This document shows, piece by piece, positions 3,198 to 35,102 of a DNA stretch of 54,199 nucleotides; position 1 is the stretch's first letter; every line of letters starts with the position of its first letter. The notes under the pieces were generated by a model that saw only the letters and a program-made list of their open reading frames with translations, had not been told where the DNA came from and searched no databases. The DNA comes from Myxococcota bacterium. GTDB lineage: Bacteria > Myxococcota_A > UBA9160 > PR03. The translations under genes and the position numbers were made by a program. Location: the NCBI GenBank assembly GCA_041611735.1, contig JBFIML010000029.1, forward strand, positions 1 to 54,199. The letters run 5' to 3'.

Positions 3198-3806
3198 CTA
3201 GCGCGCGGAGGCCCCCTGGCGGGCGCAGGCGATGCACAGGCGGGTGTCCGGCAGGGCTTCCAGCCGCTCGAGGTCGATCGTCTCGTCGCACACCGCGCAG
3301 CTTCCGTAGGTGCCGCGATCCATGGCATCGAGGGCGCGGTCGATGGCGTCGAGCCGCCGCACCCGCAGCCTCTCCAGGGTGTTCCCGAACCGGAGCGAGA
3401 GCTCCGCGCCGGCGCGCTCCGCGTCGTCGGTGATCTCCTCGCGGCCCGTGATGGCCGCGAGCCGAACCGCCTCCTCCTTGAGCGAGCGGTTCTCGGCCAC
3501 GATGCGCTCGCGCTCGCGCTCCAGCCGCTCGCGCAGCCGGTGCAGCGTCCGGGTCCGGGCTTCGGGCACGCCCGCCAGCCCCTCGTGGCCCTCTTCGCGC
3601 AGGCGCGTGGCGCGCGTCACCAGCAGGTCGCGCTTCTGGGCGAGGCTCAGCACGTCGCACTCCACCAGGCCCCAGCAGGGCGTGAAGCCCTTGGCGTCGC
3701 ACAGCTCCTCCAGGATGGGCCCGGCCCCGCGTCGGTTGCCAGCCAGCTCGGAGGCCGGCACCTGGATCACGCGCAGATGGGCGCAACGGTGGAAGTGGTG
3801 ACGCAC
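3198..3806 (-). CDS. TraR/DksA C4-type zinc-finger protein with N-terminal extension
   Basis: Coiled coil, then IDRALDAMDRGTYGSCAVCDETIDLERLEALPDTRLCIAC. GTG start at 3806 preceded by GGAGG. Confidence 0.85.
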   Translation of the reverse strand: MRHHFHRCAHLRVIQVPASELAGNRRGAGPILEELCDAKGFTPCWGLVECDVLSLAQKRDLLVTRATRLREEGHEGLAGVPEARTRTLHRLRERLERERERIVAENRSLKEEAVRLAAITGREEITDDAERAGAELSLRFGNTLERLRVRRLDAIDRALDAMDRGTYGSCAVCDETIDLERLEALPDTRLCIACARQGASAR

Positions 3807-3823
3807 GGGCGACCTCCAGGGCC

Positions 3824-5338
3824 TCAAGCCCTCCGGGCCGGGCGCACGCCGCCGCGGGGGGCGACCCGGCGCGCGGAGCGGGCGGAGCGACGCGCGGAGC
3901 GCTGCTCGAGCGCGCCGAGGCTCTGCTCGAACAGGCTGGCCACCCGGTGCGGGTCGGGGATCGCCTCCGGGTCGGTGTCGATTCCGACCTCCACGCTGCC
4001 GGCGTAGGACAGCAGTGCGACCGCCAGGGGCATGCCCTCCACGACGCTCACGAAGGGGTAGAGGGCCTCCACGCCGGCACCCGCCAGGTAGCGGCGCTCG
4101 CCCGGGCCCGGGACGTTGGTGCAAACCAGGTTCACCCGGGAGAGCGCCCCGCGCGCCATCCAGCGGAAGGCGAGACCGGGGAGCAACGCCAGCGGCTGGG
4201 CCAGGAAGGGGAGCGCCGCGCCGCGCCGGTCCTGCTTGGCGGCGCGCGTCTGCTCCGTCACGCGGCGCAGGCGCTGCTCGAAGCTCCTCTCGTGCAGCGG
4301 CAGTGCGATGTGGAACGTGCCCACGCGGTTGCCGAGCGGATCCCGCTCGGACTGGCTGCGCAGGTTCATGGGAACCATGCAGTTCAGGCGCGGGATGCGA
4401 ACGCCGCGCTCCCGGTGATAGGCGTCGAGGGTGGCCGCCAGGGTCGTCAGCACCACGTCGTTCAAGGTGACGCCGAGGGCCGCCTTGATCCGCACCAGGC
4501 GCTCGAACGGGATCCGGACCACGTCGAGGCGGCGCGACAGGCCGGCGCCCGAGCGCGCCAGGGGGTCGCTCACCCGGGCTGCGGCAAGCTCCGCCACGAC
4601 CCCGCCGATCCCCCGGGCGGTTCGCCAGGCACGCTCCGCCGAGGCGGCGGGATGGCGCAGGGCGCGAGCCGGCGCCAGGGCGGCGCGCCAGGCGAGGCGC
4701 ACGGACTGGCGCCCGTTGTCCAGGGCCAGCCCCGCGAGCCGCTCCAGCGCGCCGCTCGGACTCGGCGAGCCCGCTTGCGGGTCGAACGGGAGCCGCGGCG
4801 GCTCCGCGTCCCGGTGGCGCTGGGTGAGGGCATTGAGGATCGCGACGGCGCCCACCCCATCCACCAGACAGTGGTGCAGCTTCAGGAAGAGCGCGGCTCG
4901 CCCGCCCTCCAGGCGGTCGATCCAGTACGCCTCCCACAGGGGCCGCTCGTGGTCCAGGGGCGTGGCCAGCAGCGTGGCCACCAGATCCAGCAGCTGCCGG
5001 AGCCGGCCGGGCTCGGGCAGCGCCAGGCGCCGCAAGTGGTAGGAACGGTCGAAGTGCGAGTCCTCGACCCATTCGGGGAGACCCAGGTGGAGCGGCACCT
5101 CCACCACGCGCTCACGCAGGCGGGGAAGCAGGGCGAAGGCGGCATCCCAGGCGCCCTCTGCCCGACCCCAGTCCGGCGCGCGATCGAGCACGAAGAGCCC
5201 GCCGATGATGGGACGCAGGGTCGGGAGCGCGCTCTCCGCGTACCAGAACAGGGCGTCTGTGGACGTCATGCGTGCGGCGGGGCGCACGGGTCGCAGCAGC
5301 GATGAAGGGGGCACCGACACGGGCTCGCCGGCCTCCAT
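3824..5338 (-). CDS. Wax ester synthase/diacylglycerol acyltransferase (WS/DGAT)
   Basis: Catalytic HHCLVDG (HHxxxDG), PLDHERPLWE, TLNDVVL, TNVPGP. True start may be the Met at ~5269. Confidence 0.92.
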   Translation of the reverse strand: MEAGEPVSVPPSSLLRPVRPAARMTSTDALFWYAESALPTLRPIIGGLFVLDRAPDWGRAEGAWDAAFALLPRLRERVVEVPLHLGLPEWVEDSHFDRSYHLRRLALPEPGRLRQLLDLVATLLATPLDHERPLWEAYWIDRLEGGRAALFLKLHHCLVDGVGAVAILNALTQRHRDAEPPRLPFDPQAGSPSPSGALERLAGLALDNGRQSVRLAWRAALAPARALRHPAASAERAWRTARGIGGVVAELAAARVSDPLARSGAGLSRRLDVVRIPFERLVRIKAALGVTLNDVVLTTLAATLDAYHRERGVRIPRLNCMVPMNLRSQSERDPLGNRVGTFHIALPLHERSFEQRLRRVTEQTRAAKQDRRGAALPFLAQPLALLPGLAFRWMARGALSRVNLVCTNVPGPGERRYLAGAGVEALYPFVSVVEGMPLAVALLSYAGSVEVGIDTDPEAIPDPHRVASLFEQSLGALEQRSARRSARSARRVAPRGGVRPARRA

Positions 5339-5390
5339 TAGCCTTCAGGATAGTGGATTCCCTCGCACCGGGCGTCCTCGCGCCCTGAGC

Positions 5391-5966
5391 TCAGTCGCGC
5401 CCGCGCAGGCGCTCGCGCAGGGCCTCCACCTCCCGGGCCAGCCACCCGAGGCTGTCTTCGCCGGCCCTCTGGAGCTGCTCGAGCACGTCGCGCAGCCCCT
5501 CCTCCGCCTGGGCGCGGCGGCGCGTCCAGCGGGCCCGCTCGCGGGCATCCTCGATCTCGCGCCGCGAGGCCTCACCCAGGTCGTCCAGCTCCCGGGCCAC
5601 CCGGATCAGCACGTCGTCGAGGGAGACGATCCCCACCAGGCGCTCGCCCTGCACCACCGGGAGTCTTCGCATCCCGTTGGAGCTCATGCGCTCCACCAGC
5701 TGCTCCAGGCGATCGTCCGGGGAGACCGTCACCAGGGGCTTGCTCATGATGTCGGCGGCCCGTGTCGCCGCCGGATCGCGGCCCTCGGCGATGACGCGGC
5801 AGGTGAGATCCCGGTCCGTGACGATCCCGATCGGCCGCTCCGCCTCGTCGACGATCACCACGCCGCCCACCGCCGAGAGAGCCATGGGCTCCACCAGCTC
5901 GCGCACCGTGGCGTCGCTGCGCGCCCGGACCACCTCGCTCCGGTAGTGTCCCAGGGGCTTCATCAC
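5391..5966 (-). CDS. CBS-pair protein with C-terminal helical/coiled-coil tail
   Basis: GIVTDRDL, MRRLPVV, GIVSLDD. Overlaps the stop of the upstream CBS gene. Confidence 0.88.
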   Translation of the reverse strand: MMKPLGHYRSEVVRARSDATVRELVEPMALSAVGGVVIVDEAERPIGIVTDRDLTCRVIAEGRDPAATRAADIMSKPLVTVSPDDRLEQLVERMSSNGMRRLPVVQGERLVGIVSLDDVLIRVARELDDLGEASRREIEDARERARWTRRRAQAEEGLRDVLEQLQRAGEDSLGWLAREVEALRERLRGRD

Positions 5967-6439
5967 TCCACCTCCGGACCGGGAACGGTCTCGCCTTCCC
6001 AGCCGGCCCGGCCGCCCGCGGCGGGCGCCTGGGCGGCCACCGCCTCGGCCAGGCCGCCGAGCTCGCGCGCCAGCAGGCGCAGCACGTCGTCCGCCGCGAT
6101 CACACCCACCAGGCGCTCGGAGCGGTCCACCACCGGCAGCCTCCGCACGCCCCGCCGTCGCATCATGCCCGCCACCAGGGCGAGGGGGGCGTCCGCGTGT
6201 ACGACCACCGGCTCGCGAGCCACCAGGGCGCGCACAGGCGTCGCGTCGGGGTCCCGCCCCTCGCGGAGCACCTGCAGGGCCAGGTCTCGATCCGTCAGGA
6301 CCCCGGCCACGCGCCGATCCTCGTGGACGACGACCAGGGCCCCGACCCCCTCGTCACGCATGCGTCGGGCGGCGGCCCGGAGCGGCTCGTCCGGGTGCAC
6401 GGTCTGGACCGGCTGCCGGCAGTAGTCTCCGACGGGCAT
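5963..6439 (-). CDS. CBS-pair protein (Hrp1/Rv2626c-like)
   Basis: GVLTDRDL, VRRLPVV, GVIAADD. ATG 6439 with GGAGGAG RBS. Confidence 0.88.
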   Translation of the reverse strand: MPVGDYCRQPVQTVHPDEPLRAAARRMRDEGVGALVVVHEDRRVAGVLTDRDLALQVLREGRDPDATPVRALVAREPVVVHADAPLALVAGMMRRRGVRRLPVVDRSERLVGVIAADDVLRLLARELGGLAEAVAAQAPAAGGRAGWEGETVPGPEVE

Positions 6440-6468: not shown

Positions 6469-6484
6469 TGCAAGCCACGTGCCG
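6469..6484 (-). promoter_or_regulatory. sigma54 -24/-12 promoter for the CBS-CBS-WS/DGAT operon
   Basis: Minus strand CGGCACGTGGCTTGCA = GG-N10-GC, ~30 nt upstream of ATG 6439. Confidence 0.75.
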
Positions 6485-6630
6485 AGCCAGGCCATGTTCC
6501 GGACCCCCGGAGCCCCGGTGCGGCACGCTGCCCTGCAGCGGGACGGCCCACCTCCCTGGGAGCCGCGCGCGTCGTGCCCGTAGTTTGCCTACTCTCCGCT
6601 CCTCGGGCGACGCGAGAGCGGGAGGCAGCC

Positions 6631-6846: not shown

Positions 6847-6854
6847 GCCAGCCC

Positions 6855-13574: not shown

Positions 13575-13590
13575 AGCAACTCCCGTGCCC
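13575..13590 (-). promoter_or_regulatory. sigma54 -24/-12 promoter for the cyt c-nos operon
   Basis: Minus strand GGGCACGGGAGTTGCT, ~32 nt upstream of ATG 13543. Confidence 0.75.
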
Positions 13591-13726
13591 GCGGATGTCC
13601 GGTGTGGGCGGGACTCCGTGGGTGAAGATCGGCGCGTAACTCGAAGGGAAACGGCCCGCAGGTCCTTCTCCGAGGCGGGGGCGGGCCGCATTGTACGGGA
13701 CTTTTCGCCGCATGTTGCCCTCGATC

Positions 13727-16276: not shown

Positions 16277-16292
16277 CGCAAGCGGCGTGCCC
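16277..16292 (-). promoter_or_regulatory. sigma54 -24/-12 promoter for the ferritin-like gene (and possibly hemN)
   Basis: Minus strand GGGCACGCCGCTTGCG. Confidence 0.72.
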
Positions 16293-16489
16293 AAGGCGGG
16301 AAGCCCTCTTCGTGCCCGCCACGGGAGGCGTGTCCCGGAGCGCCGCACCCGCTGTGCAACCCTGCCTCACGCCGCGGGTGGCGACCCCGCCGGGCCTCGG
16401 CCACCTTAGGAGTCTGACCCGGGACTGGCGTGGGAGGGTCGGGCTCCTGGCTGGCGCCGGCGCCCGAGCTGTGGGCGAGGAGGGCGTGC

Positions 16490-16978
16490 ATGACCTGGAC
16501 CGCCCGCGACCTGATGCACGGCGCCGTCCACACCGTGGACCCGGACATGAGCCTGGCCGACCTGGAGCGCAGCTTCCTGCGCACCGGCGTGTCGGGCTTC
16601 CCGGTGGTGGAGGATGGCCGCCTGGTGGGCATCGTCTCCCGCTCCGACGTGGTGCGCCAGCTCTCGGTGGAGCGCAGCCAGGCCGAGACGATCTCGGACT
16701 ACTATCGCGAAGCCACCGGCATCGAGGACGCGGAAGCCAGCCTCGAGGACATCGCCGAGCGCGTGGGGGCGCGCCTCGAGCGGCTGCGCGTGGCGGACCT
16801 CATGATCCGCCGCCTCATCACCGTCTCTCCCGAGCAGCCCCTGGGCGAGGTGGCTCGCATCCTGCTCGAGCATCGCATCCACCGTCTCCCGGTCACCGAG
16901 GCAGGGCGGTTGGTGGGCATCGTGAGCAGCCTGGACCTGGTGCGGTTGTTCGCAGAGGATCGGGTCAAGCCCGCCTGA
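16490..16978 (+). CDS. CBS-pair protein
   Basis: SGFPVV, GIVSRSD, IHRLPV, GIVSSLD; GAGGAGG RBS. Confidence 0.88.
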   Translation: MTWTARDLMHGAVHTVDPDMSLADLERSFLRTGVSGFPVVEDGRLVGIVSRSDVVRQLSVERSQAETISDYYREATGIEDAEASLEDIAERVGARLERLRVADLMIRRLITVSPEQPLGEVARILLEHRIHRLPVTEAGRLVGIVSSLDLVRLFAEDRVKPA

Positions 16979-16994
16979 GAGGGGGACCGGAGCG

Positions 16995-19421
16995 ATGGAT
17001 CCTTCCGCCTTCGTGCGCGGGTTCTCCGAGCTCGGCATGGACGACGTGCCGAGCGTCGGCGGCAAGAACGCCTCGCTCGGCGAGATGGTGCGCGCCCTGG
17101 CGAGCCGCGGCGTGGCGGTCCCGGACGGCTTCGCACTGACCGCCGACGCCTACCGCTTCTTCCTGGCCGAGGCGGGCCTCGCCCAGGAGATCCCCCGCGT
17201 GCTCGCGGGACTCGACACCCACGACGTCTACGATCTGCGCCGGCGCGGCGCCCGGGTGCGGGAAGCGATCCTGGGCGCCCGCCTTCCGGAAGCCCTGGAG
17301 CGCGCCATCCGGGACGCCTATGCGCGGCTGTGCGCCGAGACCGGCGACGAGCTGGACGTGGCGGTGCGCAGCAGTGCCACCGCCGAGGACCTGCCCGACG
17401 CGAGCTTCGCCGGCCAGCAGGAGACCTACCTGAACGTGAGGGGGCCCACGGCGCTGCTGGACGCCTGCCGGCGCTGCTTCGCCTCCCTGTACACGGACCG
17501 CGCCATCTCCTACCGGGCGGACAAGGGATTCGATGCCACCCCCATTGCCCTCTCCATCGGCGTGCAGCGCATGGTGCGCTCGGACCTGGCCACCTCCGGT
17601 GTCCTGTTCTCCGTCGACACGGAGACCGGCTTTCGGGACGCCGTGCTCATCAACGCCGCCTACGGGCTGGGCGAGAACGTGGTGCAGGGTGTCGTCAACC
17701 CGGACGAGTACACGGTCTTCAAGCCCACCCTGAAGCAGGGCTACCGGCCCATCGTCCGGCGCGTGCTCGGCAGCAAGGAGGTGAAGCTGGTCTACGCGTC
17801 GGGGGGCGTCCGGGGTCTGCGCAACGTCCCCGTTCCGGTCGAGGATCGCGAACGCTTCGCCCTCGACGACGAGGAGGTCCTCACCCTGGCACGCTGGGCG
17901 TGTGTGATCGAGGACCACTACAGCAGCCGGCGCGGACACCCCACGCCCATGGACATCGAGTGGGCCAAGGACGGACGCTCGGGCGAGCTCTTCATCGTGC
18001 AGGCGCGCCCGGAGACCGTGCACTCCCGGCGCCGTCTCGACGTGCTCGAGGTGCACCGCCTGCGCGAGCACGGCAGGCCCCTGGTGAGCGGCCGCAGCAT
18101 CGGCGACCGCATCGCCCAGGGTCCCGTCCGCGTGATCCTCGACGCTCGCGACCTGCACCGCTTCGCGACCGGCGAGGTGCTGGTCACCGACAGCACGGAT
18201 CCCGACTGGGAGCCGATCATGAAGCGCGCCGCCGCCATCGTCACCAACCGCGGCGGACGCACCTGCCACGCGGCCATCGTGGCGCGCGAGCTCGGGGTGC
18301 CGGCGATCGTAGGAGCGCAGGCTGCCACCGGGGTGCTGCACGATGGCCAGGAGGTGACCGTCTCCTGCGCGGAGGGGGAAACCGGCCACGTCTACGAGGG
18401 TCGCCTGGCCGTGGACGTGGAGCGCATCGAGCTCGCCAACCTGGCTCGCCCCCGCACGCGGATCCTCCTGAACGTGGCCAACCCCGAGGAGGCCTTTCGG
18501 CTCTCCTTCCTGCCCAACGACGGCGTCGGCCTGGCCCGCCTGGAGTTCATCATCAATACGGAGGTGCGCATCCATCCCATGGCGCTCGTCGCCTGGAACC
18601 AGGTGGAAGACCCGGAGGTGCGCGCGGAGATCGAGCGACTCACCCGGGGCTACCCGGACAAGCCGAGCTACTTCGTGGACCGCCTGGCCGAGGGCGTGGC
18701 CACCATCGCGGCGGCCTTCCATCCCAAGGACGTGATCGTCCGCATGAGCGACTTCAAGTCCAACGAGTACGCCAACTTGATCGGGGGGCGCGGGTTCGAG
18801 CCGAAGGAGGAGAACCCCATGCTCGGCTTCCGGGGCGCCTCACGCTACTACGATCCCCGCTACCGGGACGGCTTCGCGCTCGAGTGCCGCGCCATGAAGA
18901 AGGTGCGCGACGAGATGGGGCTCGAGAACGTCAAGCTGATGATCCCCTTCTGCCGCACGCCGGAGGAGGGACGTCGCGTGCAGGCGGAGCTGGAGAAGCA
19001 CGGCCTGCGGCGTGGGGAGCGCGGGCTGGAGCTGTACGTGATGTGCGAGATCCCCAGCAACGTGCTGCGCGCCGACGAGTTTGCCGAGCTGTTCGACGGC
19101 TTCTCCATCGGCTCGAACGACCTGACCCAGCTCACCCTCGGGGTGGACCGGGATTCGGAGCTGCTGGCCGCGCTCTTCGACGAGCGGGACCCGGCGGTGC
19201 GCGCCATGGTGGCCCTGGCGGTGCGGGCCGCCCGGGCCCGGGGGCGCAAGATCGGCATCTGCGGCCAGGCCCCCAGCGACTATCCGGAGTTCGCGGAGTT
19301 CCTGGTGGAGATCGGGATCGACAGCATCTCGCTCAACCCGGACGCGGTCGTGAGGACGCTGCAGCGCATCCGGGACCAGGAAGAGAAGCTGGAGGCCTCC
19401 GGGAGCCGCTCGGGCACCTAG
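16995..19421 (+). CDS. ppsA: Phosphoenolpyruvate synthase (pyruvate,water dikinase)
   Basis: VGGKNASLGEM, AVRSSATAEDLPDASFAGQQET, GGRTCHAAI (phospho-His), EENPMLGFRG, FSIGSNDLTQ. Confidence 0.96.
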   Translation: MDPSAFVRGFSELGMDDVPSVGGKNASLGEMVRALASRGVAVPDGFALTADAYRFFLAEAGLAQEIPRVLAGLDTHDVYDLRRRGARVREAILGARLPEALERAIRDAYARLCAETGDELDVAVRSSATAEDLPDASFAGQQETYLNVRGPTALLDACRRCFASLYTDRAISYRADKGFDATPIALSIGVQRMVRSDLATSGVLFSVDTETGFRDAVLINAAYGLGENVVQGVVNPDEYTVFKPTLKQGYRPIVRRVLGSKEVKLVYASGGVRGLRNVPVPVEDRERFALDDEEVLTLARWACVIEDHYSSRRGHPTPMDIEWAKDGRSGELFIVQARPETVHSRRRLDVLEVHRLREHGRPLVSGRSIGDRIAQGPVRVILDARDLHRFATGEVLVTDSTDPDWEPIMKRAAAIVTNRGGRTCHAAIVARELGVPAIVGAQAATGVLHDGQEVTVSCAEGETGHVYEGRLAVDVERIELANLARPRTRILLNVANPEEAFRLSFLPNDGVGLARLEFIINTEVRIHPMALVAWNQVEDPEVRAEIERLTRGYPDKPSYFVDRLAEGVATIAAAFHPKDVIVRMSDFKSNEYANLIGGRGFEPKEENPMLGFRGASRYYDPRYRDGFALECRAMKKVRDEMGLENVKLMIPFCRTPEEGRRVQAELEKHGLRRGERGLELYVMCEIPSNVLRADEFAELFDGFSIGSNDLTQLTLGVDRDSELLAALFDERDPAVRAMVALAVRAARARGRKIGICGQAPSDYPEFAEFLVEIGIDSISLNPDAVVRTLQRIRDQEEKLEASGSRSGT

Positions 19422-19956: not shown

Positions 19957-21234
19957 ATGTCGCGTTCGGCCAGCCTCGAGGAGCGCCTCGCGTTCCTCGG
20001 CCTGATGGAAGCCGACCTCCTCCTCTTGGGGGAGCTGCGGCCACTGCTCGAGCAGCATGCGGAAGGCCTGGTGGACGCCTTCTACCAGCATCTGCTGGCC
20101 TTCGAGCCGACCCGGCGCCTGCTGGCGGATCCCCAGGTGAAGGACCGGCTGCTGGGCAAGCAGCGCGACTACCTGCTGAGCCTGAGCGAGCCGCGCGTGG
20201 ACTCCGCCTATGAGGCCGAGCGCGTCCGCATCGGCGAGGTGCACGAGCACGTGGGCCTCGAGCCGCGTTGGTACCTGGGCGCCTACGGCGTCTATTTCTC
20301 CCTGCTGGTTCCCGTGATCTGCGAGGCCTTCGGCTCGGACCCCAACCGCACCGAGCGCATGGTGGCGGCGGTGGTGAAGCGGCTCCTGCTCGACGCGCAG
20401 CTCGCCATGGAGGCGTACATGGCGCGCCGCGAGGCGGAGCTCGAGCACCTGAACCGGGAGCTCGCTTCCCTGAGTCGAGGCCTGGCCCAGGAGGTGAAGG
20501 AGAGCCACTTCTCCCTGCGCGAGACGGAGCGCCGCGCGCGGGCGGCCGAGGAGCTCGCCTCCACGGCCACCCTGGTCGCCGGCCTCGCCCACGAGATCGG
20601 GACGCCCCTCGGCGTGATCCGGGGTCACGCCGAGGCCCTGGACACCGCGGTCCAGGGCGAGCGCCCCCAGTGGCGCCTGCGCACGATCCGCGCGCAGATC
20701 GATCGCATCTCGAAGATCATCGAGGCGCTGCTGAACATGGCCCGCCCGCGGGAGTCCGTGCGCGTGCCGGTCGCCCTCGACGAGATCCTGGAGGTGACCC
20801 TGGCCTTCGTGTCCGAGAAGCTGCGTCGGCGCGGCATCCAGGTGGTGCGGGACCTGCGTCCGGTGCCCCCCATCGCCGGCGACCCGGAGAAGCTCCAGCA
20901 GCTCTGGCTGAACCTGTTCCTGAACGCCGCGGACGCCATGCCGGAAGGCGGACAGCTGGGCGTCCGGCTGCGGGCGGAGGAGCCGGAGCGGGTCGAGGTG
21001 CACGTCTCGGACACCGGCGCCGGCATCGACCCGGACGCCCTGCCGCACATCTTCGAGCCCTTCTACACCACCAAGCCGCCGGGCCGGGGCAGCGGTCTGG
21101 GCCTGCTGGTGGCGCGCGGCATCGTGCTCGACCACGGCGGCTCGATCGACGTCTGGAGCGAGCCGGGCAAGGGCTCGGAGTTCCGGATCTCGCTGCCCGC
21201 GGGCTCCAGCGGAAGGCAGCCTCCGAGCGCCTGA
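19957..21234 (+). CDS. Globin-coupled sensor histidine kinase
   Basis: N-terminal sensor globin (LAFLGL, VDAFYQHL with B10 Tyr, RIGEVHEHVGLEPRWYLGAY with proximal His), then HisKA AHEIGTPL and HATPase NAADA/DTGAGI/FEPFYTTK/GSGLGL. No TM segments; same architecture as Anaeromyxobacter AfGcHK. Confidence 0.88.
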   Translation: MSRSASLEERLAFLGLMEADLLLLGELRPLLEQHAEGLVDAFYQHLLAFEPTRRLLADPQVKDRLLGKQRDYLLSLSEPRVDSAYEAERVRIGEVHEHVGLEPRWYLGAYGVYFSLLVPVICEAFGSDPNRTERMVAAVVKRLLLDAQLAMEAYMARREAELEHLNRELASLSRGLAQEVKESHFSLRETERRARAAEELASTATLVAGLAHEIGTPLGVIRGHAEALDTAVQGERPQWRLRTIRAQIDRISKIIEALLNMARPRESVRVPVALDEILEVTLAFVSEKLRRRGIQVVRDLRPVPPIAGDPEKLQQLWLNLFLNAADAMPEGGQLGVRLRAEEPERVEVHVSDTGAGIDPDALPHIFEPFYTTKPPGRGSGLGLLVARGIVLDHGGSIDVWSEPGKGSEFRISLPAGSSGRQPPSA

Positions 21235-21258: not shown

Positions 21259-21275
21259 TGTGGCGCCGTGCCCCA
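21259..21275. promoter_or_regulatory. Candidate enhancer (UAS) palindrome
   Basis: TGTGGCG-CCG-TGCCCCA; degenerate second copy at 21279-21295. Confidence 0.45.
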
Positions 21276-21333
21276 TCCTGTGTATGAATGTCCCTGAGGG
21301 AGCGTCCGGAGCGTCCTTCGCTGGCCGGTGGGC

Positions 21334-21349
21334 TGGCACGGGTTCTGCT
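21334..21349 (+). promoter_or_regulatory. sigma54 -24/-12 promoter for the response regulator-USP genes
   Basis: TGGCACGGGTTCTGCT, ~18 nt upstream of ATG 21367. Confidence 0.72.
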
Positions 21350-21366
21350 TCGCTTCGAGGTTCGTG

Positions 21367-22746
21367 ATGGCAGACGTCCGCTCCGTCCTGGTCGTCGACG
21401 ACGAAGCCGCCATGCGCGAGATGGTCGTCTCGCTGCTCGAAGACGAGGGCATCCACGCGGCGGCGGCCGGCACCGCCGACGAGGCGTGCGAGAGCCTGCG
21501 CGAGCACGAGGTGGACGCGGTCCTCTCCGACATCCGCATGCCCGGACGCACCGGTGTCGAGCTGCTCGGCGAGATCCGCGAGCTGCGGCCGGGCACGCCG
21601 GTGATCCTGATGACCGCCTTCGGGAGTATCGACTCGGCGGTGGAGGCCATGCGGGCGGGAGCATTCGATTACGTCACCAAGCCCTTCAAGCGCGACGAGC
21701 TGCTCGTGACCCTCGAGCGCGCCTTCGAGCGCCGCGCCCTGGAGGAGGAGAACCGCCGGCTGCGCGCGGCCGTGGACCGCACCAGCTCCTTCGGCGACCT
21801 GATCGGAGCGAGCCCCGCCATGCGCGAGATCTTCGCCCTGATCCGCAAGATCGCCGACAGTCGTAGCAGCGTGCTGATCACGGGCGAGAGCGGGACCGGC
21901 AAGGAGATCGTGGCCCGCACCATCCACTTCTCCGGCGCCCGCTCCCGCCGCCCCTTCGTGCCGATCAACTGCACCGCCATTCCGGAGGGTCTGCTGGAGA
22001 GCGAGCTGTTCGGCCACCTGCGCGGTTCCTTCACGGGGGCCCACGCCACCAAGCGGGGTCTGTTCGAGCAGGCGGCGGGCGGCACGCTCTTTCTGGACGA
22101 GATCGGGGACATGGGCCTGGGCCTGCAGGGAAAGCTCCTGCGCGTGCTGCAGGACCGGGAGATTCGCCCCGTGGGCAGCACCCACACCGTGAAGGTGGAC
22201 GTGCGCATCATCGCCGCCACCAACCGCGAACTGAAGACCGAGATCGAGGAAAGCCGCTTCCGCCGCGATCTCTTCTATCGCCTGAACGTGATCCCGATCC
22301 ACATCCCCCCGCTACGCGAGCGACCCGAGGACGTGGCGCCGCTGGCGGAGACCTTCCTGCGCAAGCACGGAGAGGGCCGGCCGCGGCGTGTCTCGGCGAC
22401 CGCCCTGGAGCGGCTCCGGCGCTGTCGCTGGGAGGGCAACGCCCGTGAGCTGGAGAACGTGCTCGAGCGCGCGCTCGCGCTCTCGGACAAGCCCGAGATC
22501 GGCCCCGACGACCTGCCTCTGGTCGAGCACGAGGAGGTGGCGGCTCCGGAGCCCGAAGAGCTGCTGCGCGCTGCGGTGGAGCGACGCTTCACCCTGGGCG
22601 AGCTCGAGGAGCTCTACATCGACCAGGTGCTGCGCGAGACCGGGGGCAACAAGGTTCAGGCCGCTCGCATTCTCGGCATCAATCGGCGCACGCTCTACCG
22701 GCGCGGGGAGCGCTCCCGCCGCCAGCTGGAGGAGAAGGCTTCGTGA
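21367..22746 (+). CDS. NtrC-family sigma54-dependent response regulator (REC-AAA+-Fis HTH)
   Basis: VLVVDD, SDIRMP, GESGTGKE, ELFGHLRGSFTGA, LFLDEIG, DLFYRLNV, WEGNARELEN, AARILGINRRTLYR. Confidence 0.95.
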   Translation: MADVRSVLVVDDEAAMREMVVSLLEDEGIHAAAAGTADEACESLREHEVDAVLSDIRMPGRTGVELLGEIRELRPGTPVILMTAFGSIDSAVEAMRAGAFDYVTKPFKRDELLVTLERAFERRALEEENRRLRAAVDRTSSFGDLIGASPAMREIFALIRKIADSRSSVLITGESGTGKEIVARTIHFSGARSRRPFVPINCTAIPEGLLESELFGHLRGSFTGAHATKRGLFEQAAGGTLFLDEIGDMGLGLQGKLLRVLQDREIRPVGSTHTVKVDVRIIAATNRELKTEIEESRFRRDLFYRLNVIPIHIPPLRERPEDVAPLAETFLRKHGEGRPRRVSATALERLRRCRWEGNARELENVLERALALSDKPEIGPDDLPLVEHEEVAAPEPEELLRAAVERRFTLGELEELYIDQVLRETGGNKVQAARILGINRRTLYRRGERSRRQLEEKAS

Positions 22747-23189
22747 CCCGCTTCCGTACCCTGCTGGTCCCCGTGGACTTCTCGAAGCATTCCGAGGCCG
22801 CGCTCGAGCTGGCCGGGGGGCTGGCCAAGACTCTCGGAGCCAAGGTGCACCTGGTGCACGCCTACGAGCTGCCCGTGGGCGTGACGGCGGCCTACGGGGT
22901 GGCGATTCCCGAGGCGGTCTGGACCGGCATGCGCGAGGCCGCCAGCACGCGGCTCGAGAAGGCCCGCCAGAAGCTCGAGGTGGCGGGCGTGAAGAGCGAA
23001 GCGCACGTGGTGGCATCGACCCCGGTGGAGGCGATCACCGAGCTGGCGCGCTCGCTCCCGGCGGACCTGATCGTGATGGGGACGCGCGGCCTGACGGGCC
23101 TCAAGCACGTGCTGCTCGGCAGCGTGGCCGAACGCACTCTGCGCACGGCCCCCTGCCCCGTCCTCACCGTGAAGGGCGCCGACGACTGA
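22743..23189 (+). CDS. Universal stress protein
   Basis: LVPVDFS, LIVMGTRG..LGSVAE, PCPVLTV; GTGA coupling to the regulator. Confidence 0.92.
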   Translation: MTRFRTLLVPVDFSKHSEAALELAGGLAKTLGAKVHLVHAYELPVGVTAAYGVAIPEAVWTGMREAASTRLEKARQKLEVAGVKSEAHVVASTPVEAITELARSLPADLIVMGTRGLTGLKHVLLGSVAERTLRTAPCPVLTVKGADD

Positions 23190-23317
23190 TCGCGTCGAGG
23201 GGCGGGTGCCTCCAGCGGGGTCTCGGTGGCCATCCGCCAGCCCGGGGGAGCGCGGGAGGCTCGGGCGTGCAGCGCGGCATGGGGCATCGGGCCTCGGCGA
23301 GGCGGTCCGCCCTGGGG

Positions 23318-23800
23318 CTAGCCGCGGGGCGGCTCCTTCTCCAGCAGCGAGATCAAGTCGAAGCTGGAGAGGATCCCGGCCAGGCGACCGTCCTCCACCA
23401 CCAGCACCCGGTGAACGTGCTGCCGGCGCAAGGTCCGCGCCACCTCGGCGATGGGCGCGTCGGCGGGCACCGTCACCACCTCCTCGGTCATGGCGTCGGC
23501 CACGCTGAGCTGAGCGAGGCGGTCCTGGAGATCCTCCGGCGGGGCGCCCCAGTCGGGGCCCGAGAACTCCAGGAGCTCGCGAAAATAGACCGGCGCGCTG
23601 GCCGCCGTCTCGTGCTCTTCCTCCACGGCGCGCAGCAGATCGAGGGTCGTGATGACGCCGATCACGGTGCCTTCGTCGCTCACCACGGGGGCGCCGTGGA
23701 TCTCCTCCTCGACGAAGAGCCGGTGCACATCCAGCAGCCGCGTCTCCGGCGAGACGCTCAGCACGTGGGTCTGCATGAGGTCGCGGGCCAGGACGCTCAT
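23318..23800 (-). CDS. CBS-pair protein
   Basis: IHGAPVV, GVITTLD, VHRVLVV, GILSSFD; AAGGAG RBS. Confidence 0.88.
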   Translation of the reverse strand: MSVLARDLMQTHVLSVSPETRLLDVHRLFVEEEIHGAPVVSDEGTVIGVITTLDLLRAVEEEHETAASAPVYFRELLEFSGPDWGAPPEDLQDRLAQLSVADAMTEEVVTVPADAPIAEVARTLRRQHVHRVLVVEDGRLAGILSSFDLISLLEKEPPRG

Positions 23801-23833
23801 GGGGGGCTCCTTTCCGGTCCGATGCGTTCCGTT

Positions 23834-23849
23834 TGCACGAGCCATGCCA
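23834..23849 (-). promoter_or_regulatory. sigma54 -24/-12 promoter for the CBS gene
   Basis: Minus strand TGGCATGGCTCGTGCA. Confidence 0.62.
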
Positions 23850-23876
23850 GCCGTGCCCCTGGCAGTCGGGCCGGGC

Positions 23877-23892
23877 GGGCACGACGCTTGCT
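23877..23892 (+). promoter_or_regulatory. sigma54 -24/-12 promoter for the kinase-CBS genes
   Basis: GGGCACGACGCTTGCT, ~25 nt upstream of ATG 23917. Confidence 0.72.
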
Positions 23893-23916
23893 CCCCCACA
23901 CGCGGGAGGAGCCTGC

Positions 23917-25572
23917 ATGATCGCCTCCGGCGGGGCGTCCGTCGAGAAGCTACCGGCGGGCCTTCCCGAGGGCCTGGCCCGGGTCTCGGCTTACCCCGGG
24001 GACGCCAGCGCCCGGGACGGTGTCCAGTGGGTGCAGACCCACCTCTCCCACGTCTTCCTCACCGGAGAGCGCGTCTACAAGCTTCGCAAGGCCGTGGACC
24101 TCGGCTTCGTGGACTTCTCGACCCGCGCCCTCCGCAACCAGGACTGCCTGCGGGAGGTGGCGCTCAACCGGCGCCTGGCCCCGGACGTCTACCTGGGCGT
24201 GGCCCCCGTCGAGGGGGGCGGCACACCCCACGTGGGCCCGCTCGCCGAGGCCCTGGCGCCCTGCGGGCCGCACGGCGCGACCTCCGAGCATTGCGTGGTC
24301 ATGCGGCGCCTGCCCGACGGGCGCGACGCCCTGAGCCTGCTCCAGGCCGGGCGCCTGCGCTCGCGTCACCTGGACGCGGTGGCCGCCCGCATCGCCCGCT
24401 TCCACGAGGCAGCCCGTCTGGGCGTGCCCGCACCCTTCTCGCCCGAGGCGTGGCGCGCTCGCCTGTGGGCCCCGGTGGAGGAGACGCTCGGGGCGCTGGC
24501 GTCCGAGGCGGGCGGCGCTCGGGTCTCCCGGGTCAGCCGCGAGCGGGTCCTCGCCCGGGCCCGGTCCTTCTTCGACGACCACGCGGACCGCTTCGAAGCG
24601 CGCCGCCGGGATGGACGCGCCGTGGACGGCCACGGGGACCTGCATCTCCAGCACGTCTGGTTCGAGAGCGAGGCGCCCGAGCCCCTGTTCGTCGACTGCA
24701 TCGAGTTCCGCGAGGACCTGCGCCGCATCGACGCCGCCGCCGAGGTGGCGTTCCTGGCCATGGACCTGACCTACCGCCGTCGGCGCCGGTTCGCGGCGCG
24801 CTTCCTGCGCCGCTATGCCCGCGAGAGCGACGACTTCGATCTCTACGGCGTGGTGGACTTCTACGTGAGCTACCGCGCCGCGGTGCGCGCCAAGGTGGCC
24901 GCGCTGGCTGCCGGGGAGCCCGAGATCGCACCGGTCCAGCGAGCCGCGTCGGTGCGCAGTGCGCGTCGCCACCTGGCCCTGGCGGAGCGGGCGCTGGCGC
25001 CGCGCCGCCGCGGCGCCCTCGTCCTGCTCACCGGGATCATCGGCACCGGCAAGAGCTCGGCCGCCGAGTTGGTGGCCGACGAGCTGGAGGGCGTCGTGAT
25101 CGCCTCGGACCGCGTGCGCAAGCGCCTGGCCGGACTGCCCCTCACGGCGCCGTTCGAGGCCGGCATGGACCCGGAGCTCTATGGGCCCGAGCGCGTCGAG
25201 GCGGTCTATGGGGCCCTGCTCCCGCGCGCCGCGCCCGTGGTGGACTCCGGACGCGTGGCCGTGCTGGACGCCAGCTACGACCGGGCCTCCCGCCGGGCCG
25301 CGGCGCGACGCTGGGCCCAGGCGCGCGGCGTGCCCTTCTGGATCGTCGAGACGCGCTGCGCGGAGCCCGTGGTGCTGGCGCGACTGGCGCGTCGGCGGGC
25401 CGCGGGGCAAGATCCCTCGGACGCGGGTCCGGAGCTGTACCGGGCCAAGGCCGCGCAGTACGAGTCCGTGGAGGCCGACGCGCCGGGCGAGCACGTGGTG
25501 ATCCACACCGACGCAGCCGGCTGGCGCACCCGGGCGCGCAAGCTCGCGCGGCGTCTGGCAGGCAGCCGCTGA
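23917..25572 (+). CDS. Bifunctional aminoglycoside-phosphotransferase-like/P-loop (AAA_33) kinase, Rv2004c-like
   Basis: QTHLSHVFL, YKLRKAVDLGFVDFST, NRRLAPDVYLG, HGDLHL, DCIEF; C-terminal GIIGTGKS, SDRVRK, VLDAS. Confidence 0.88.
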   Translation: MIASGGASVEKLPAGLPEGLARVSAYPGDASARDGVQWVQTHLSHVFLTGERVYKLRKAVDLGFVDFSTRALRNQDCLREVALNRRLAPDVYLGVAPVEGGGTPHVGPLAEALAPCGPHGATSEHCVVMRRLPDGRDALSLLQAGRLRSRHLDAVAARIARFHEAARLGVPAPFSPEAWRARLWAPVEETLGALASEAGGARVSRVSRERVLARARSFFDDHADRFEARRRDGRAVDGHGDLHLQHVWFESEAPEPLFVDCIEFREDLRRIDAAAEVAFLAMDLTYRRRRRFAARFLRRYARESDDFDLYGVVDFYVSYRAAVRAKVAALAAGEPEIAPVQRAASVRSARRHLALAERALAPRRRGALVLLTGIIGTGKSSAAELVADELEGVVIASDRVRKRLAGLPLTAPFEAGMDPELYGPERVEAVYGALLPRAAPVVDSGRVAVLDASYDRASRRAAARRWAQARGVPFWIVETRCAEPVVLARLARRRAAGQDPSDAGPELYRAKAAQYESVEADAPGEHVVIHTDAAGWRTRARKLARRLAGSR

Positions 25573-25607: not shown

Positions 25608-26072
25608 ATGGCAAAGCACCGGGTGGCGGATTTCATGAGCCGGAAGGTGGTGAGCCTGCGGCCCGACGCGAGCGTGCGCGAGGCGGAGGCCCTGCTGGCG
25701 AAGCACGGCATCGGCGGGGCTCCGGTGGTGGACGAGCATGGCCGCGTGCGGGGCGTCGTGTCCCAGCGCGACCTGGTGCGCCTGGAGGCCACACCGGCCA
25801 CCGCCGGCCAGAGCGGCGAGTTCTACACCGACATGGAGGAGTTTCGGGACCTGGCAAAGACGCCCGTCGAGCGGCACGGCACCCCGGTCGAGAAGGTCAT
25901 GACGACGAACGTGATCCAGGTCGGGCCGGACGCGGAGGTAGCCGAGGCGGCCCGGACCATGCGCGCGCACCGCGTTCACCGCCTGCTGGTGATCGACGGC
26001 CAGGTGCTGGTGGGGATCCTGACCGCCCAGGACCTCCTGCGCGCCCTGGAGGAGCAGCCCGCTACTCCGTGA
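25608..26072 (+). CDS. CBS-pair protein
   Basis: IGGAPVV, GVVSQRD, VHRLLV, GILTAQD; AAGGAGG RBS. Confidence 0.88.
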   Translation: MAKHRVADFMSRKVVSLRPDASVREAEALLAKHGIGGAPVVDEHGRVRGVVSQRDLVRLEATPATAGQSGEFYTDMEEFRDLAKTPVERHGTPVEKVMTTNVIQVGPDAEVAEAARTMRAHRVHRLLVIDGQVLVGILTAQDLLRALEEQPATP

Positions 26073-34300: not shown

Positions 34301-34907
34301 GGGCCGCGATGGCGGGCTCGTCCAGCAGGGCCTCCAGGTCCGCGTCGCTCAGGGGCTCGATCTTGTTGATCTCGTGGGAGGTGCGGAAGCCGTCGAAGAA
34401 GTGCAGGAAGGGAACCCGCGCCCGCAGGGCGGTGGCGTGGGCCACCAGCGCGAGGTCCTGGGCCTCCTGCACCGAGGCGCTCGCGAGCAGCGCCCAGCCC
34501 GTGGTGCGCGCGGCCATGACGTCGCTGTGGTCGCCAAAGATCGAGAGCGCGTGGGTGGCCACGGTGCGCGCCGCCACATGGACCACGCCGGGAAGCAGCT
34601 GGCCCGCCACCTTGAAGAGGTTCGGCAGCATGAGCAGCAGGCCCTGGGAGGCGGTGAAGGTGGTGGCGAGCGCCCCCTTCTGCAGGGCGCCGTGCAGGGC
34701 GCCGGCGGCGCCGGCCTCGCTCTGCATCTCCACCACCTCGGGAACGACTCCCCAGAGGTTCGGCCGCCCCTGGGCGCTCCAGGCGTCCGCCCACTCGCCC
34801 ATGGGCGAGGCGGGAGTGATCGGGTAGATGGCGATCACCTCGGCGAGCCGGTGGGCGATGCGGGCCACCGCCTCGTTGCCGTCGATACAGGTCCAGCGAC
34901 GCGCCAT
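31299..34907 (-). CDS. nifJ: Pyruvate:ferredoxin/flavodoxin oxidoreductase (homodimeric)
   Basis: IDGNEA, YPITPASPM, MQSEAGAAG, FDGFRTSHE, two CxxCxxCxxxCP ferredoxin motifs, FSGACAGCGETPY, GGDGWAYDIG (TPP). Confidence 0.96.
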   Translation of the reverse strand: MARRWTCIDGNEAVARIAHRLAEVIAIYPITPASPMGEWADAWSAQGRPNLWGVVPEVVEMQSEAGAAGALHGALQKGALATTFTASQGLLLMLPNLFKVAGQLLPGVVHVAARTVATHALSIFGDHSDVMAARTTGWALLASASVQEAQDLALVAHATALRARVPFLHFFDGFRTSHEINKIEPLSDADLEALLDEPAIAAHRERRLTPDRPVLRGSAQNPDVFFQAREAANPFYAAVPGLVQESFDSLAGRVGRRYRLVDYVGAPDAERVLVLMGSGVGAAEEAVHALCARGERVGLLQVRLFRPFPSEALLEALPRSVRALAVLDRTKEPGAPGEPLYQDVVTALAEAAAEGALTDGRLPRVVGGRYGLASKEFTPAMAKGVLDALDLASPRNHFTVGIVDDVTHTSLAWDRDFRAEPEGVRALFHGLGSDGTVGATKSSVKIIGEHTDLYSQGYFVYDSKKSGAVTVSHLRFGPRPIRSTYLIDRAEFVACHHFGFLERLDVLGRAAPGATFLLNSRHGPEAVWDALPQEVQQQILDRQLAFWVIDADRVAREVGMGNRINTVMQACFFALAGVLPREQAIRAIHGSIERDYGKRGPAVVERNRAAVDRALEALHRVEVPGAVTSKRRMRPPVPADAPDFVQRVTARLMAGEGDLLPVSALPPDGTFPTGTARYEKRQIATEIPIWDPAICIDCGKCAAVCPHAAIRMKLYPPEALADAPGRFPTKAFRSRELPGLQLSIQVVPDDCTGCGVCVEVCPARSKEEVKHKAIDMRPAAEHWEQERANFAFFLDIPELARERVSPHVVKNAQALEPLFEFSGACAGCGETPYLKLLSQLFGDRIVVANATGCSSIYGGNLPTTPWGTNRQGRGPAWANSLFEDNAEFGFGMLLALERHVAEVRALVERLAPRLGEQLARELLEAPQHDEAGLAAQRARVEALRDRLAELGGADRDVRRLLGLADELVRKSIWIVGGDGWAYDIGSAGLDHVLASSRNVNVLVLDTQVYSNTGGQASKATPRAAVAKFASGGKTVPCKDLGMIASAYGNVYVAQVALGADDQQTLRAFLEADAWPGPSLLVAYSTCIAHGIDMTRSMTHQKDAVRSGFWPLWRYHPGLDPHQHPLRLDSRKPTLPLREFAASEARFAMLERTNPAQARRLLALAQADVDERWRLYEQLARVERTVPHAQAPAVPPTGEGDGT

Positions 34908-34922
34908 GGCCCTGAACGAAGT

Positions 34923-34938
34923 TGCATCCCGCGTGCCA
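34923..34938 (-). promoter_or_regulatory. sigma54 -24/-12 promoter for the PFOR operon
   Basis: Minus strand TGGCACGCGGGATGCA, ~16 nt upstream of ATG 34907. Confidence 0.68.
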
Positions 34939-34985
34939 GGGGGGGAGCCTCCCGAGCCCGCCCGGTACCGGGAGCCCGGCCGGAG

Positions 34986-35002
34986 TGCGCCATCCTGTCG
35001 CA
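34986..35002. promoter_or_regulatory. Candidate enhancer (UAS) palindrome
   Basis: TGCGCCA-TCC-TGTCGCA, a near-perfect inverted repeat; half-conserved copy at 35007-35023. Confidence 0.5.
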
Positions 35003-35102
35003 TTCGTGAGGCAGTACGCGCACGACGAGACCGGACGCCTCACGGTCCGGAGCGGCCCGCGGTTGAGTGCCCGGCGGGGAGATGCCATCCTGGGGGTCTC
35101 CC

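Follow-up and report, generated by a model that had tools for sequence, protein, structure and literature searches.

Introduction

The described system closest to the locus analyzed here, in which a gene for a globin-coupled histidine kinase is followed by a gene for an NtrC-type activator of sigma-54 promoters on a contig of a Myxococcota bacterium (JBFIML010000029.1 of assembly GCA_041611735.1; the whole stretch of 54,199 nucleotides is referred to as the window), is the NmpRSTU system of Myxococcus xanthus (PMC6211767; PMC11841059). The protoglobin kinase of that system, NmpU, is a homologue of AfGcHK. It transfers phosphate to a hybrid kinase, NmpS, and to a protein with two receivers, NmpT, but not to the NtrC-like regulator NmpR, which is phosphorylated by NmpS when oxygen falls; NmpS inverts the signal in this relay and the role of NmpT is that of a phospho-sink (PMC6211767). 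NmpR binds pairs of GCGCA-N5-TGCGC repeats upstream of sigma-54 promoters and induces its own CBS-led operon, nmpUTS, and genes for a universal stress protein (USP), a P-type ATPase with a cbb3 oxidase, hemN with a hemerythrin, and pilR; hypoxia upregulates the mxan_4236 promoter, and the same source mentions the USPs of M. tuberculosis (PMC11841059). A regulon controlled by a globin-coupled kinase through an NtrC-like sigma-54 activator is already known from this work (PMC6211767; PMC11841059), and the belief expressed in the initial annotation of the present contig that no such regulon was known is out of date. For the present locus we consider it probable, although with considerable reserve, that the kinase-activator pair drives a sigma-54 regulon which is clustered around the pair and is on as oxygen falls. 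What appears to be new in comparison with Nmp is a simpler and differently wired layout, a different putative binding site and the addition of clade II nosZ.

Both systems place a haem-globin kinase first and an NtrC-like sigma-54 activator last (PMC6211767; PMC11841059), and they are also alike in the apparent regulation of the activator's own operon and in two tandem inverted repeats with a 5-bp spacer that precede sigma-54 promoters. The overlap in targets is striking, with CBS, USP and HemN genes at the present locus and cbb3 oxidase and hemerythrin genes in the relatives of this genome. In contrast to NmpRSTU, the present locus seems to have a plain two-protein layout because neither an NmpS nor an NmpT was found. 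None of the 31 HisKA matches in the assembly (rated 95% complete) has a receiver (REC) domain within 400 nucleotides (nt) upstream, as an NmpS-type REC-HisKA hybrid would, and no NmpT-type second receiver was found at 19 loci compared among the relatives, where the only REC is that of the activator. The candidate binding site also differs, being TGNGNC-N5-GNCNCA here compared to GCGCA-N5-TGCGC for NmpR, and the latter consensus, searched with up to one mismatch, occurs in the window about as often as expected (12 vs. 11.8 matches) and upstream of none of the seven promoters described below. Furthermore, the proposed targets clade II nosZ, PFOR, TreT and WS/DGAT are not among the NmpR targets in the accounts cited above.

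Other heme-based kinases control low-oxygen respiration or dormancy-type genes as well, namely those of the FixL-FixJ and DosS/DosT-DosR systems, and among the members of the DosR regulon are USPs, an HSP20, a CBS protein and the triacylglycerol synthase tgs1. Unlike the kinase described here, however, they sense through PAS or GAF haem domains and not through a globin, and they act on sigma-70-type regulators of the FixJ/NarL family. Known regulators of nosZ are the FNR/Crp-family proteins NNR/DNR and, in Wolinella, NssABC, as well as NosR, and one study reportedly proposes Crp/Fnr control of nosZ in a clade II thermophile. These regulators have in common with the present system that they link nos to oxygen or N-oxides, whereas the nos promoter at the present locus is of the sigma-54 type with a candidate enhancer site. 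In the literature we found no described route to nosZ through sigma-54, RpoN or an enhancer-binding protein, the broader literature on nosZ and oxygen having been judged by titles only.

Results

Seven predicted sigma-54 promoters and their chance expectation

The window is contig C29 of an assembly (G000) of 4.09 Mb in 118 contigs with a G+C content of 72%. Its genes between 3.2 and 35 kb were mapped with Pfam and NCBIfam profiles, and 40 related genomes were searched, with 19 loci around kinase orthologues (L093-L111) being compared. The initial annotation had pointed to seven GG-N10-GC sites in this region, and their coordinates, strands and orientation were borne out. All seven match GGCA(C/T)G-N5-TGC with GG and GC exactly 10 nt apart, and they lie 14-33 nt before start codons, as counted from the end of the 16-mer to the start codon. 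Five are on the minus strand and precede the CBS/WS-DGAT genes (6469-6484, 29 nt before the ATG at 6439), the cytochrome c-nos genes (13575-13590, 31 nt before the ATG at 13543), a ferritin-like gene (16277-16292, 32 nt before the TTG at 16244), a CBS gene (23834-23849, 33 nt before the ATG at 23800) and the PFOR gene (34923-34938, 15 nt before the ATG at 34907). The other two, on the plus strand, precede the activator-USP genes (21334-21349, TGGCACGGGTTCTGCT, 14 nt before the GTG at 21364) and the genes for an AAA_33 and a CBS protein (23877-23892, 24 nt before the ATG at 23917). The genes that had been named downstream of these sites agree with the Pfam and NCBIfam matches and with a diiron motif in the ferritin-like protein.

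The explanation that the sites are chance matches in GC-rich DNA was rejected by our tests and retains next to no probability, even though a loose pattern (TGGCAYG-N4-TTGC with up to two mismatches) is present in the window at about the expected number (29 matches vs. 27.9). The strict 9-base pattern has 137 matches in the 4.09-Mb genome, and 45 of these (33%) are in a promoter-like context, defined by a start-codon and frame test as a position just upstream of a coding-like open reading frame (ORF) and not inside one. Such a context is also met by chance, but only 669 of 5793 matches (11.5%) to 25 scrambled patterns of the same composition were found in it. Moreover, seven of the 45 promoter-context sites fall within 28.5 kb (Poisson P = 4.5e-8), and orthologous genes in several genera and families retain the sites, which are coupled to a shared upstream site; all of this argues against chance. 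The context test misses some real promoters, such as that of the activator in L096 and that of the CBS gene in L093, both of which were spotted by eye. The genome contains one rpoN (one Sigma54_DBD match) and 14 full sigma-54-interaction AAA+ domains (Sigma54_activat), one of them in the window.

Among the relatives, whose loci were searched for the same sites and the same gene order as the initial annotation had suggested, sigma-54 sites were found at orthologous genes. The activator gene is preceded by a sigma-54 site in all 18 loci that hold it, 17 of these promoters having been found by script (three with one mismatch) and that of L096 by eye. Sites also precede orthologues of the ferritin-like gene (L093, L097, L100 and L102), the CBS and AAA_33 genes and, in L093, the PEP synthase and cytochrome c-nosZ genes. 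The two back-to-back promoters of the window, 23834-23849 on the minus and 23877-23892 on the plus strand, have 27 nt between their 16-mers; the former is kept in L093 and L109, and in the L093 counterpart of the latter, the AAA_33 promoter, CG replaces the invariant GG. Judged by these sequence comparisons, the seven sites behave as real sigma-54 promoters that are conserved in relatives.

The activator and PFOR sites are placed very near the start codon (21334-21367 and 34907-34938 in the window), and the same close spacing, 13-17 nt from site to start, was seen in 13 of the 17 script-found activator promoters of the relatives. A transcription start about 11-12 nt past the GC would leave the activator and PFOR mRNAs with leaders of a few nt and no Shine-Dalgarno sequence.

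No sigma-54 site was found upstream of the kinase gene itself. The 535 nt between the PEP synthase and kinase genes (19422-19956) contain no convincing ORF, no Rfam family at gathering score, no sigma-70-like site and no sigma-54 site, and a scan for sigma-70 promoters and terminators around the kinase gene gave nothing useful.

The globin-coupled kinase and the NtrC-type activator

The kinase gene (19957-21234, plus strand) encodes a soluble protein of 425 amino acids (aa) with a Protoglobin domain (residues 5-157; PF11563, 126 bits), the only one matched in this genome, followed by HisKA (205-265) and HATPase_c (308-415) domains. In alignments, its Tyr43 and His96 correspond to the distal Tyr and the proximal His of HemAT and AfGcHK, and both residues, together with the phospho-acceptor His212, N319 and the G-boxes, are invariant in 18 kinase orthologues. 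The initial annotation had described the kinase as AfGcHK-type, which holds for the architecture only. AfGcHK of Anaeromyxobacter sp. Fw109-5 (PDB 5ohe) is likewise a soluble globin-HisKA-HATPase_c protein with distal Tyr and proximal His. However, the globin domain of the kinase studied here is distant from that of AfGcHK (39.9 bits and about 29% identity by hand count, compared to 57.5 bits against HemAT), and its phospho-accepting His is at position 212 rather than 183. NmpU is a homologue of AfGcHK, and NmpU and NmpR are likened here to the present pair by description. In addition, the partner of AfGcHK is a two-receiver protein homologous to NmpT (PMC6211767), whereas the present kinase adjoins an enhancer-binding protein. 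Full-length matches to the kinase were obtained in 25 of the 40 relatives at 54-73% identity, four of them with an internal stop codon, and partial matches in two more. Among the matches listed, at least 120 database clusters match the kinase, the 120 best all at 59% identity or more. A wider search with the kinase mostly hit kinase cores from many phyla, and these matches were set aside.

The activator gene (21364-22746, plus strand; start at GTG 21364 or ATG 21367) encodes an NtrC-type enhancer-binding protein with Response_reg (111.4 bits), Sigma54_activat (237.3 bits) and C-terminal HTH_8 domains in Pfam. Its residues D12, D13, D56 and K106 are invariant in 17 orthologues, as are the Walker A stretch G174-K180 and the motif G221-x-F223-T224-G225-A226, which reads GSFTGA in the window. 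The best NCBIfam matches, AtoC (468 bits, cut-off 714) and NtrC (450 bits, cut-off 559), both remain below their cut-offs. Activator matches with E <= 1e-150 were found in 32 of the 40 relatives, at 57-84% identity.

In 17 of the 19 loci compared, kinase and activator genes are adjacent, with the activator within about 1 kb after the kinase; the exceptions are L106, where they are 5.7 kb apart, and L103 (genome G006), where they are about 17 kb apart on the same contig. The USP gene directly follows the activator gene in at least 11 of 18 related loci. Using three receiver and two kinase queries in tblastn (E <= 1e-4), no other REC or kinase core was detected within about 10 kb on either side in the 19 loci. 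As far as genomic arrangement can tell, the NtrC-type activator has the globin-coupled kinase as its conserved neighbor.

Whether the globin kinase acts on the activator directly is a separate matter. Adjacency of the two genes does not prove direct phosphotransfer, and NmpU shares a locus with NmpR and yet phosphorylates NmpS and NmpT instead of NmpR (PMC6211767). The signal could similarly pass through a relay or come from a kinase encoded elsewhere, as in NmpRSTU, and with an assembly completeness of 95% a component of such a relay could be missing. We nevertheless regard this explanation as unlikely, given that neither a REC-HisKA hybrid in the assembly nor any other two-component gene at the 19 loci was found, that a kinase gene directly upstream is the usual layout for other activators in this genome, and that a homologous kinase core stays by the activator even where the sensor domain is a different one (G039, G024, G020 and G032). 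In G039 and G024, which gave no full-length globin match, a full-length match to the kinase core with 41% identity is located near the activator gene.

Activator orthologues also occur beside homologous kinase cores that lack the globin in G020 (contig C6), where the core is part of a 736-aa frame about 1.5 kb off, and in G032 (C45), where it is a short open frame of 251 aa; in G004 (C13) the contig that carries the activator has a similar core about 7 kb away, within an open frame of 808 aa. These arrangements suggest that the sensor domain may have been swapped on a conserved kinase-activator chassis. We also considered the DHp positions H+7, +11 and +12, which read G-G-H in the kinase and are unique among 70 H-box-like matches; this feature was set aside as too weak to use.

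A 17-bp repeat upstream of the promoters

A 17-bp inverted repeat, TGNGNC-N5-GNCNCA, was found 37-130 nt upstream of sigma-54 promoters. An expectation-maximization motif search in the upstream regions of 18 activator genes yielded TGTGgCaaAntGtCaCAT, and in most loci the activator gene has two copies of the repeat, whose centers precede the -24 GG by about 66-73 and 45-48 nt. A separate search in 48 other sigma-54 upstream regions (6 from the window and 42 from relatives) returned the same motif with a log-likelihood of 194.3, compared to 35.7-48.4 for 10 mononucleotide shuffles, and 42 of the 48 promoters carry a match of at least 9 bits. Because 10 of the 48 share an intergenic region with the promoter of an activator gene, the test was repeated on the 38 promoters located more than 600 nt from an activator promoter. 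The same motif was again obtained de novo, and it scored at least 11 bits at 13 of the 18 activator promoters, while 0.015 matches per promoter would be expected from its genome-wide frequency. The distances between repeat and promoter cluster at about 37, 47, 57-60, 68-71, 77-81, 88 and 100-108 nt, consistent with helical phasing (R = 0.53 at a 10-bp period, Rayleigh p ~3e-5, for 37 promoters that are not independent).

To score the promoters of the window we used a window-free matrix built from 59 sequences of relatives only, with p given per 131-nt window. The strongest match belongs to the nos promoter (13695-13712, minus strand, in the HemN-cytochrome c intergenic region; 15.0 bits, 114 nt from the -24 GG, p 0.0005), and with a matrix from activator promoters only the same site reaches 16.4 bits and is the 4th best in the genome. 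The activator promoter has two tandem sites (21259-21276 and 21279-21296) about 67-68 and 47 nt upstream of the -24 GG (13.0 bits, p 0.002). The PFOR promoter has a site of 11.1 bits 57 nt upstream (p 0.006) and a second one of 8.7 bits (34985-35002 and 35026-35043), and the ferritin-like promoter has a site of 10.9 bits 70 nt upstream (p 0.007) with a second one of 10.2 bits about 21 bp away (16331-16348 and 16352-16369). With a matrix that was partly trained on the window promoters, a match of at least 11 bits lies upstream of five of the seven promoters in the window, compared to 6 of the 38 other sites in promoter context and 1 of the 92 sites that are not promoters. Taken together, the shared upstream site, of a type expected for an activator, supports a tie between the activator promoter and those of nos, PFOR and ferritin-like/HemN.

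The repeat might alternatively be bound by another factor, for example of the Crp/Fnr type, and not by the enhancer-binding protein. Its TGTG-N9-CACA form resembles the CRP site, TGTGA-N6-TCACA, which corresponds to TGTG-N8-CACA; a Crp/Fnr gene is under the same control in L094, and Crp/Fnr control of a clade II nosZ is said to have been suggested elsewhere. However, the spacing is 1 bp off the CRP site, and two 6-bp half-sites with a 5-bp spacer make up the 17-bp frame of the NtrC-family consensus. The NmpR site has an N5 spacer as well (PMC11841059). The repeats moreover occur in tandem, helically phased and 37-130 nt upstream of sigma-54 promoters, and in 13 of 18 loci they precede the activator's own gene. 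We therefore judge binding by a factor of another type to be highly improbable.

The nos promoter in relatives

NosZ matches are present in 21 of the 40 relatives. In L093, the closest relative, the orthologous nos promoter has two upstream sites of 17.4 and 14.9 bits that are shared with the divergent CBS promoter. Six cytochrome c-nosZ loci outside the motif training (L113-L118) served as an independent check, and four of these have the upstream site, at 105 nt in L114 (16.3 bits), 107 nt in L115 (15.7 bits), 104 nt in L118 (12.0 bits) and 101 nt in L117 (12.1 bits), each paired with a sigma-54-like element located 27-51 nt upstream of the start of the cytochrome c gene. The nos operon thus looks like a conserved member of the putative regulon within this family.

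The nos promoters of L114, L115 and L118, which come from three genomes of one genus, read GGCAC(G/A)-N4-TTGA; they keep the upstream site at 104-107 nt and are followed by a Shine-Dalgarno sequence and a GTG start.

Extent of the putative regulon

The initial annotation had proposed that the pair drives all seven promoters. This is supported for the nos, activator, PFOR and ferritin-like promoters, which have the upstream site, and not for the back-to-back pair at 23834-23849 and 23877-23892, while the CBS/WS-DGAT promoter is a marginal case. Several observations weigh against a regulon that takes in the whole cluster or the nos genes at large. At the CBS/WS-DGAT promoter the only candidate (6534-6551), 59 nt upstream, scores 7.1 bits with the window-free matrix (p 0.06), its 12.2 bits having been reached with a matrix that had the site in its training set; around the back-to-back pair no usable site of at least 7 bits was found within 23200-24600. 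Taken alone, the skeleton TGNGNC-N5-GNCNCA shows no enrichment in the window (4 matches vs. 2.4 expected, two of the four inside genes). As to nosZ, the loci L113 and L116 have neither a sigma-54 site nor an upstream site before cytochrome c-nosZ, and in L114, L115 and L118 the -12 element ends in GA (TTGA) and not in the canonical GC (TTGC). At more distant nosZ genes a sigma-54-like site is close upstream in six of 10 loci, but the repeat accompanies one of these six. Finally, the relatives are kin, and counts over them overstate their independence.

These points would fit a patchwork, in which the activator of the pair controls the repeat-bearing promoters while CBS/AAA_33, and perhaps CBS/WS-DGAT, use one of the 13 other enhancer-binding proteins. 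The genome encodes 14 full sigma-54 activators in all, and the distant nosZ loci likewise combine sigma-54-like sites with a lack of the repeat. In contrast, orthologues of the genes in doubt carry strong sites, with 13.4 bits for AAA_33 in L094 and 18.5-19.5 bits for CBS operons in L099 and L105, and the genes remain in the same neighborhood as the kinase-activator pair. We therefore consider such a division of labor possible but doubtful. The orthologous CBS operon of L105, which has a sigma-54 site together with its 19.5-bit upstream site, supports the view that the CBS/WS-DGAT operon is tied to the shared upstream site through its orthologues. The divergent CBS/AAA_33 pair is, on its promoter sequences, of the sigma-54 type. 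Since only one of the six distant sigma-54-like sites has the repeat, other activators may serve nosZ elsewhere, and through them nosZ may come under sigma-54 more widely within the order.

Further candidate members in this genome and in relatives

Outside the window, genes preceded by both an upstream site and a sigma-54 site were found on other contigs of the assembly, at C7:116825-119860, C72:11580-12922, C62:1426-1969, C90:1142-1869, C43:13157-14899, C25:43927-45707 and C36:15645-16693. The products of these candidate members include a multicopper oxidase of 1001 aa and a 426-aa protein that apparently shares its N-terminal region (by eye, not by alignment), a small CxxCH protein, a multihaem cytochrome, a NosD-like beta-helix protein with CxxCH, a thiamine pyrophosphate (TPP) enzyme, and a 334-aa protein without family assignment. 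In the relatives, promoters of the same type precede genes for a 481-aa COX1-family oxidase subunit (probably CcoN), FixP, the Crp/Fnr regulator of L094, hemerythrin, HSP20, further CBS proteins, a baeRF protein, a Nuo51-like protein and a TrkA channel. In the present genome, whose assembly is rated 95% complete, tblastn detected no cbb3 ccoN and a Pfam search detected no cytochrome bd, and the two haem-copper oxidase genes on contig C48 have no sigma-54 promoter and no upstream site.

Gene map of the locus and neighboring genes

On the minus strand, the map starts with a DksA-type zinc-finger protein, WS/DGAT and two CBS-pair proteins, the latter three (Pfam) being read in the order CBS (6439-5963), CBS (5966-5391) and WS/DGAT (5338-3824) from the promoter at 6469-6484. 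The nos cluster, identified with Pfam and NCBIfam, extends on the same strand from 13543 down to 6855 in the order cytochrome c-nosZ-nosD-nosF-(NosL-like)-nosY and also includes a gene without family assignment. Its NosZ matches TIGR04246, the Sec-type clade II model, with 866.4 bits (cut-off 625), and the accessory genes match NosD, ABC_tran and ABC2_membrane_2 in Pfam; the NosL-like match is weak (17.1 bits), and the nosY gene is best described as nosY-like.

Beyond the nos cluster follow, still on the minus strand, hemN (TIGR00538, 476.6 bits) and the gene for a 299-aa protein (16244-15345), with which hemN, extending to 13748, is probably cotranscribed. The Pfam search of the window gave no match for the 299-aa protein. 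In an alignment of 20 sequences it shows the ligand motif E60, E90xxH93, E151, E183xxH186, of which E60, E90xxH93 and E183xxH186 are invariant and E151 is at least 90% conserved. The protein also matches PDB 6d9f (E 2.9e-12), and because of this match and the diiron motif the name ferritin-like diiron protein appears fair. In relatives (L097, L100, L102, L103, L104, L109, L110 and L111) the ferritin-like gene usually occurs as two adjacent paralogues, which are about 50% and 35% identical to the single copy of the window.

The plus strand then carries a CBS protein and PEP synthase (16430-19421), which are part of the cluster and have no sigma-54 site in the window, a site being present before the PEP synthase gene of L093. 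Downstream are the kinase and activator genes and the USP gene (22743-23189; Pfam Usp, 118.8 bits), which is probably in the operon of the activator because it overlaps the activator's stop codon. After the USP gene, a CBS gene (23800-23318, Pfam) is on the minus strand, and AAA_33 (23917-25572) and CBS (25608-26072) genes, assigned by Pfam, are on the plus strand, followed by those of GAF-GGDEF and YhhN proteins. The far end of the map is occupied, on the minus strand, by PFOR (34907-31299), DHOD-like (31290-30295) and TreT (30275-28779) genes, identified with Pfam and NCBIfam, which are likely to form one operon because they are on the same strand and closely spaced.

Divergent from PFOR, the region 35067-38140 contains a FAD-type oxidoreductase (35067-36467) and two signaling genes, namely a histidine kinase (36507-37418) that is short and has no recognized sensor domain, and an adjoining receiver-domain gene (REC 37427-37765). 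Further stress-type genes at 38188-40075 and 46270-46908 encode a fatty-acid desaturase, a tandem-domain USP and another USP; no strict sigma-54 site was found at either position. DNA nearly identical to the window is present in marine and sediment metagenome runs.

Discussion

In the reading that we favor, the kinase (19957-21234) would phosphorylate the adjoining activator (21364-22746) directly, as its conserved adjacency suggests, and the phosphorylated activator would bind the 17-bp repeats, oligomerize and open sigma-54 complexes. It would thereby raise its own level in a positive, self-amplifying feedback and switch on the clade II nos operon, the genes for the diiron protein and HemN, those for PFOR, the DHOD-like protein and TreT, and those for CBS and WS/DGAT. 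These genes would come on when oxygen falls. We call the putative regulon low-oxygen because of its gene content, with HemN, PFOR, nosZ, USP and CBS genes of low-oxygen type in the window, and because in relatives genes for cbb3 oxidase, hemerythrin, Crp/Fnr and HSP20 are under the same site. The gene set of the window and the relatives matches the hypoxia-induced NmpR regulon with its CBS, USP, cbb3, hemN and hemerythrin genes (PMC11841059).

The sign of the oxygen response is the weakest step of this interpretation, since there is no inverter here comparable to NmpS in Myxococcus and yet the targets look like low-oxygen genes. Induction by falling oxygen would require that the kinase is active without bound oxygen, opposite to AfGcHK, or that in its oxygen-bound state it acts mainly as a phosphatase. 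AfGcHK, the only globin-coupled kinase known to have been assayed in this respect, has full activity as Fe(II)-O2 or Fe(III) and none as deoxy Fe(II) (PMC8697598), and in a direct pair this polarity would lead to genes that are on in oxygen, which speaks against the sign proposed here. The regulon might then be induced by oxygen and represent a response to oxygen exposure or micro-oxic stress in a largely anaerobic sediment bacterium. The distal Tyr and the proximal His, which are the same as in AfGcHK, and the lack of an NmpS-type inverter among the 31 HisKA matches and at the 19 loci are consistent with this view, and USP, HSP20, hemerythrin and a probable high-affinity cbb3-type oxidase would also suit incoming oxygen. 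In contrast, oxygen-labile or oxygen-independent enzymes (PFOR, the radical-SAM protein HemN, and NosZ) appear to share the control, and the very similar gene set of M. xanthus is hypoxia-induced (PMC11841059). Furthermore, with a globin that is only about 29% identical to that of AfGcHK the polarity need not match, and the PAS-haem kinase FixL is mentioned as having a polarity opposite to AfGcHK (PMC8697598). Induction by oxygen therefore seems rather unlikely to us. The more specific proposal of a direct two-protein switch, in which a deoxy-active globin kinase acts on the NtrC-type activator and this on clade II nosZ, along with PFOR, HemN and storage/stress genes, is put forward tentatively and with clearly less confidence than the low-oxygen regulon as such.

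Organisms with clade II NosZ are seen as the main biological sink of nitrous oxide (N2O), while the link between nosZ and oxygen is poorly defined and the few proposals are of the Crp/Fnr type. The present locus offers a testable circuit of one sensor, one activator, a candidate 17-bp site and a sigma-54 promoter before cytochrome c-nosZ, which appears to be shared by several genera of uncultured bacteria of marine and sediment origin. The locus would extend the Nmp oxygen regulon of Myxococcus to a simpler wiring and raises the question of a globin kinase with reversed polarity. Should the pair be activated by oxygen instead, the surprise would be an N2O reductase and a PFOR that are induced by oxygen. 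If the direct, deoxy-active switch is true, it would be the first route defined for the control of nosZ by oxygen in these uncultured N2O reducers of sediments, and it would represent a natural and, considering the at least 120 kinase clusters at 59% identity or more among the matches listed, common short-circuit of the four-part Nmp relay.

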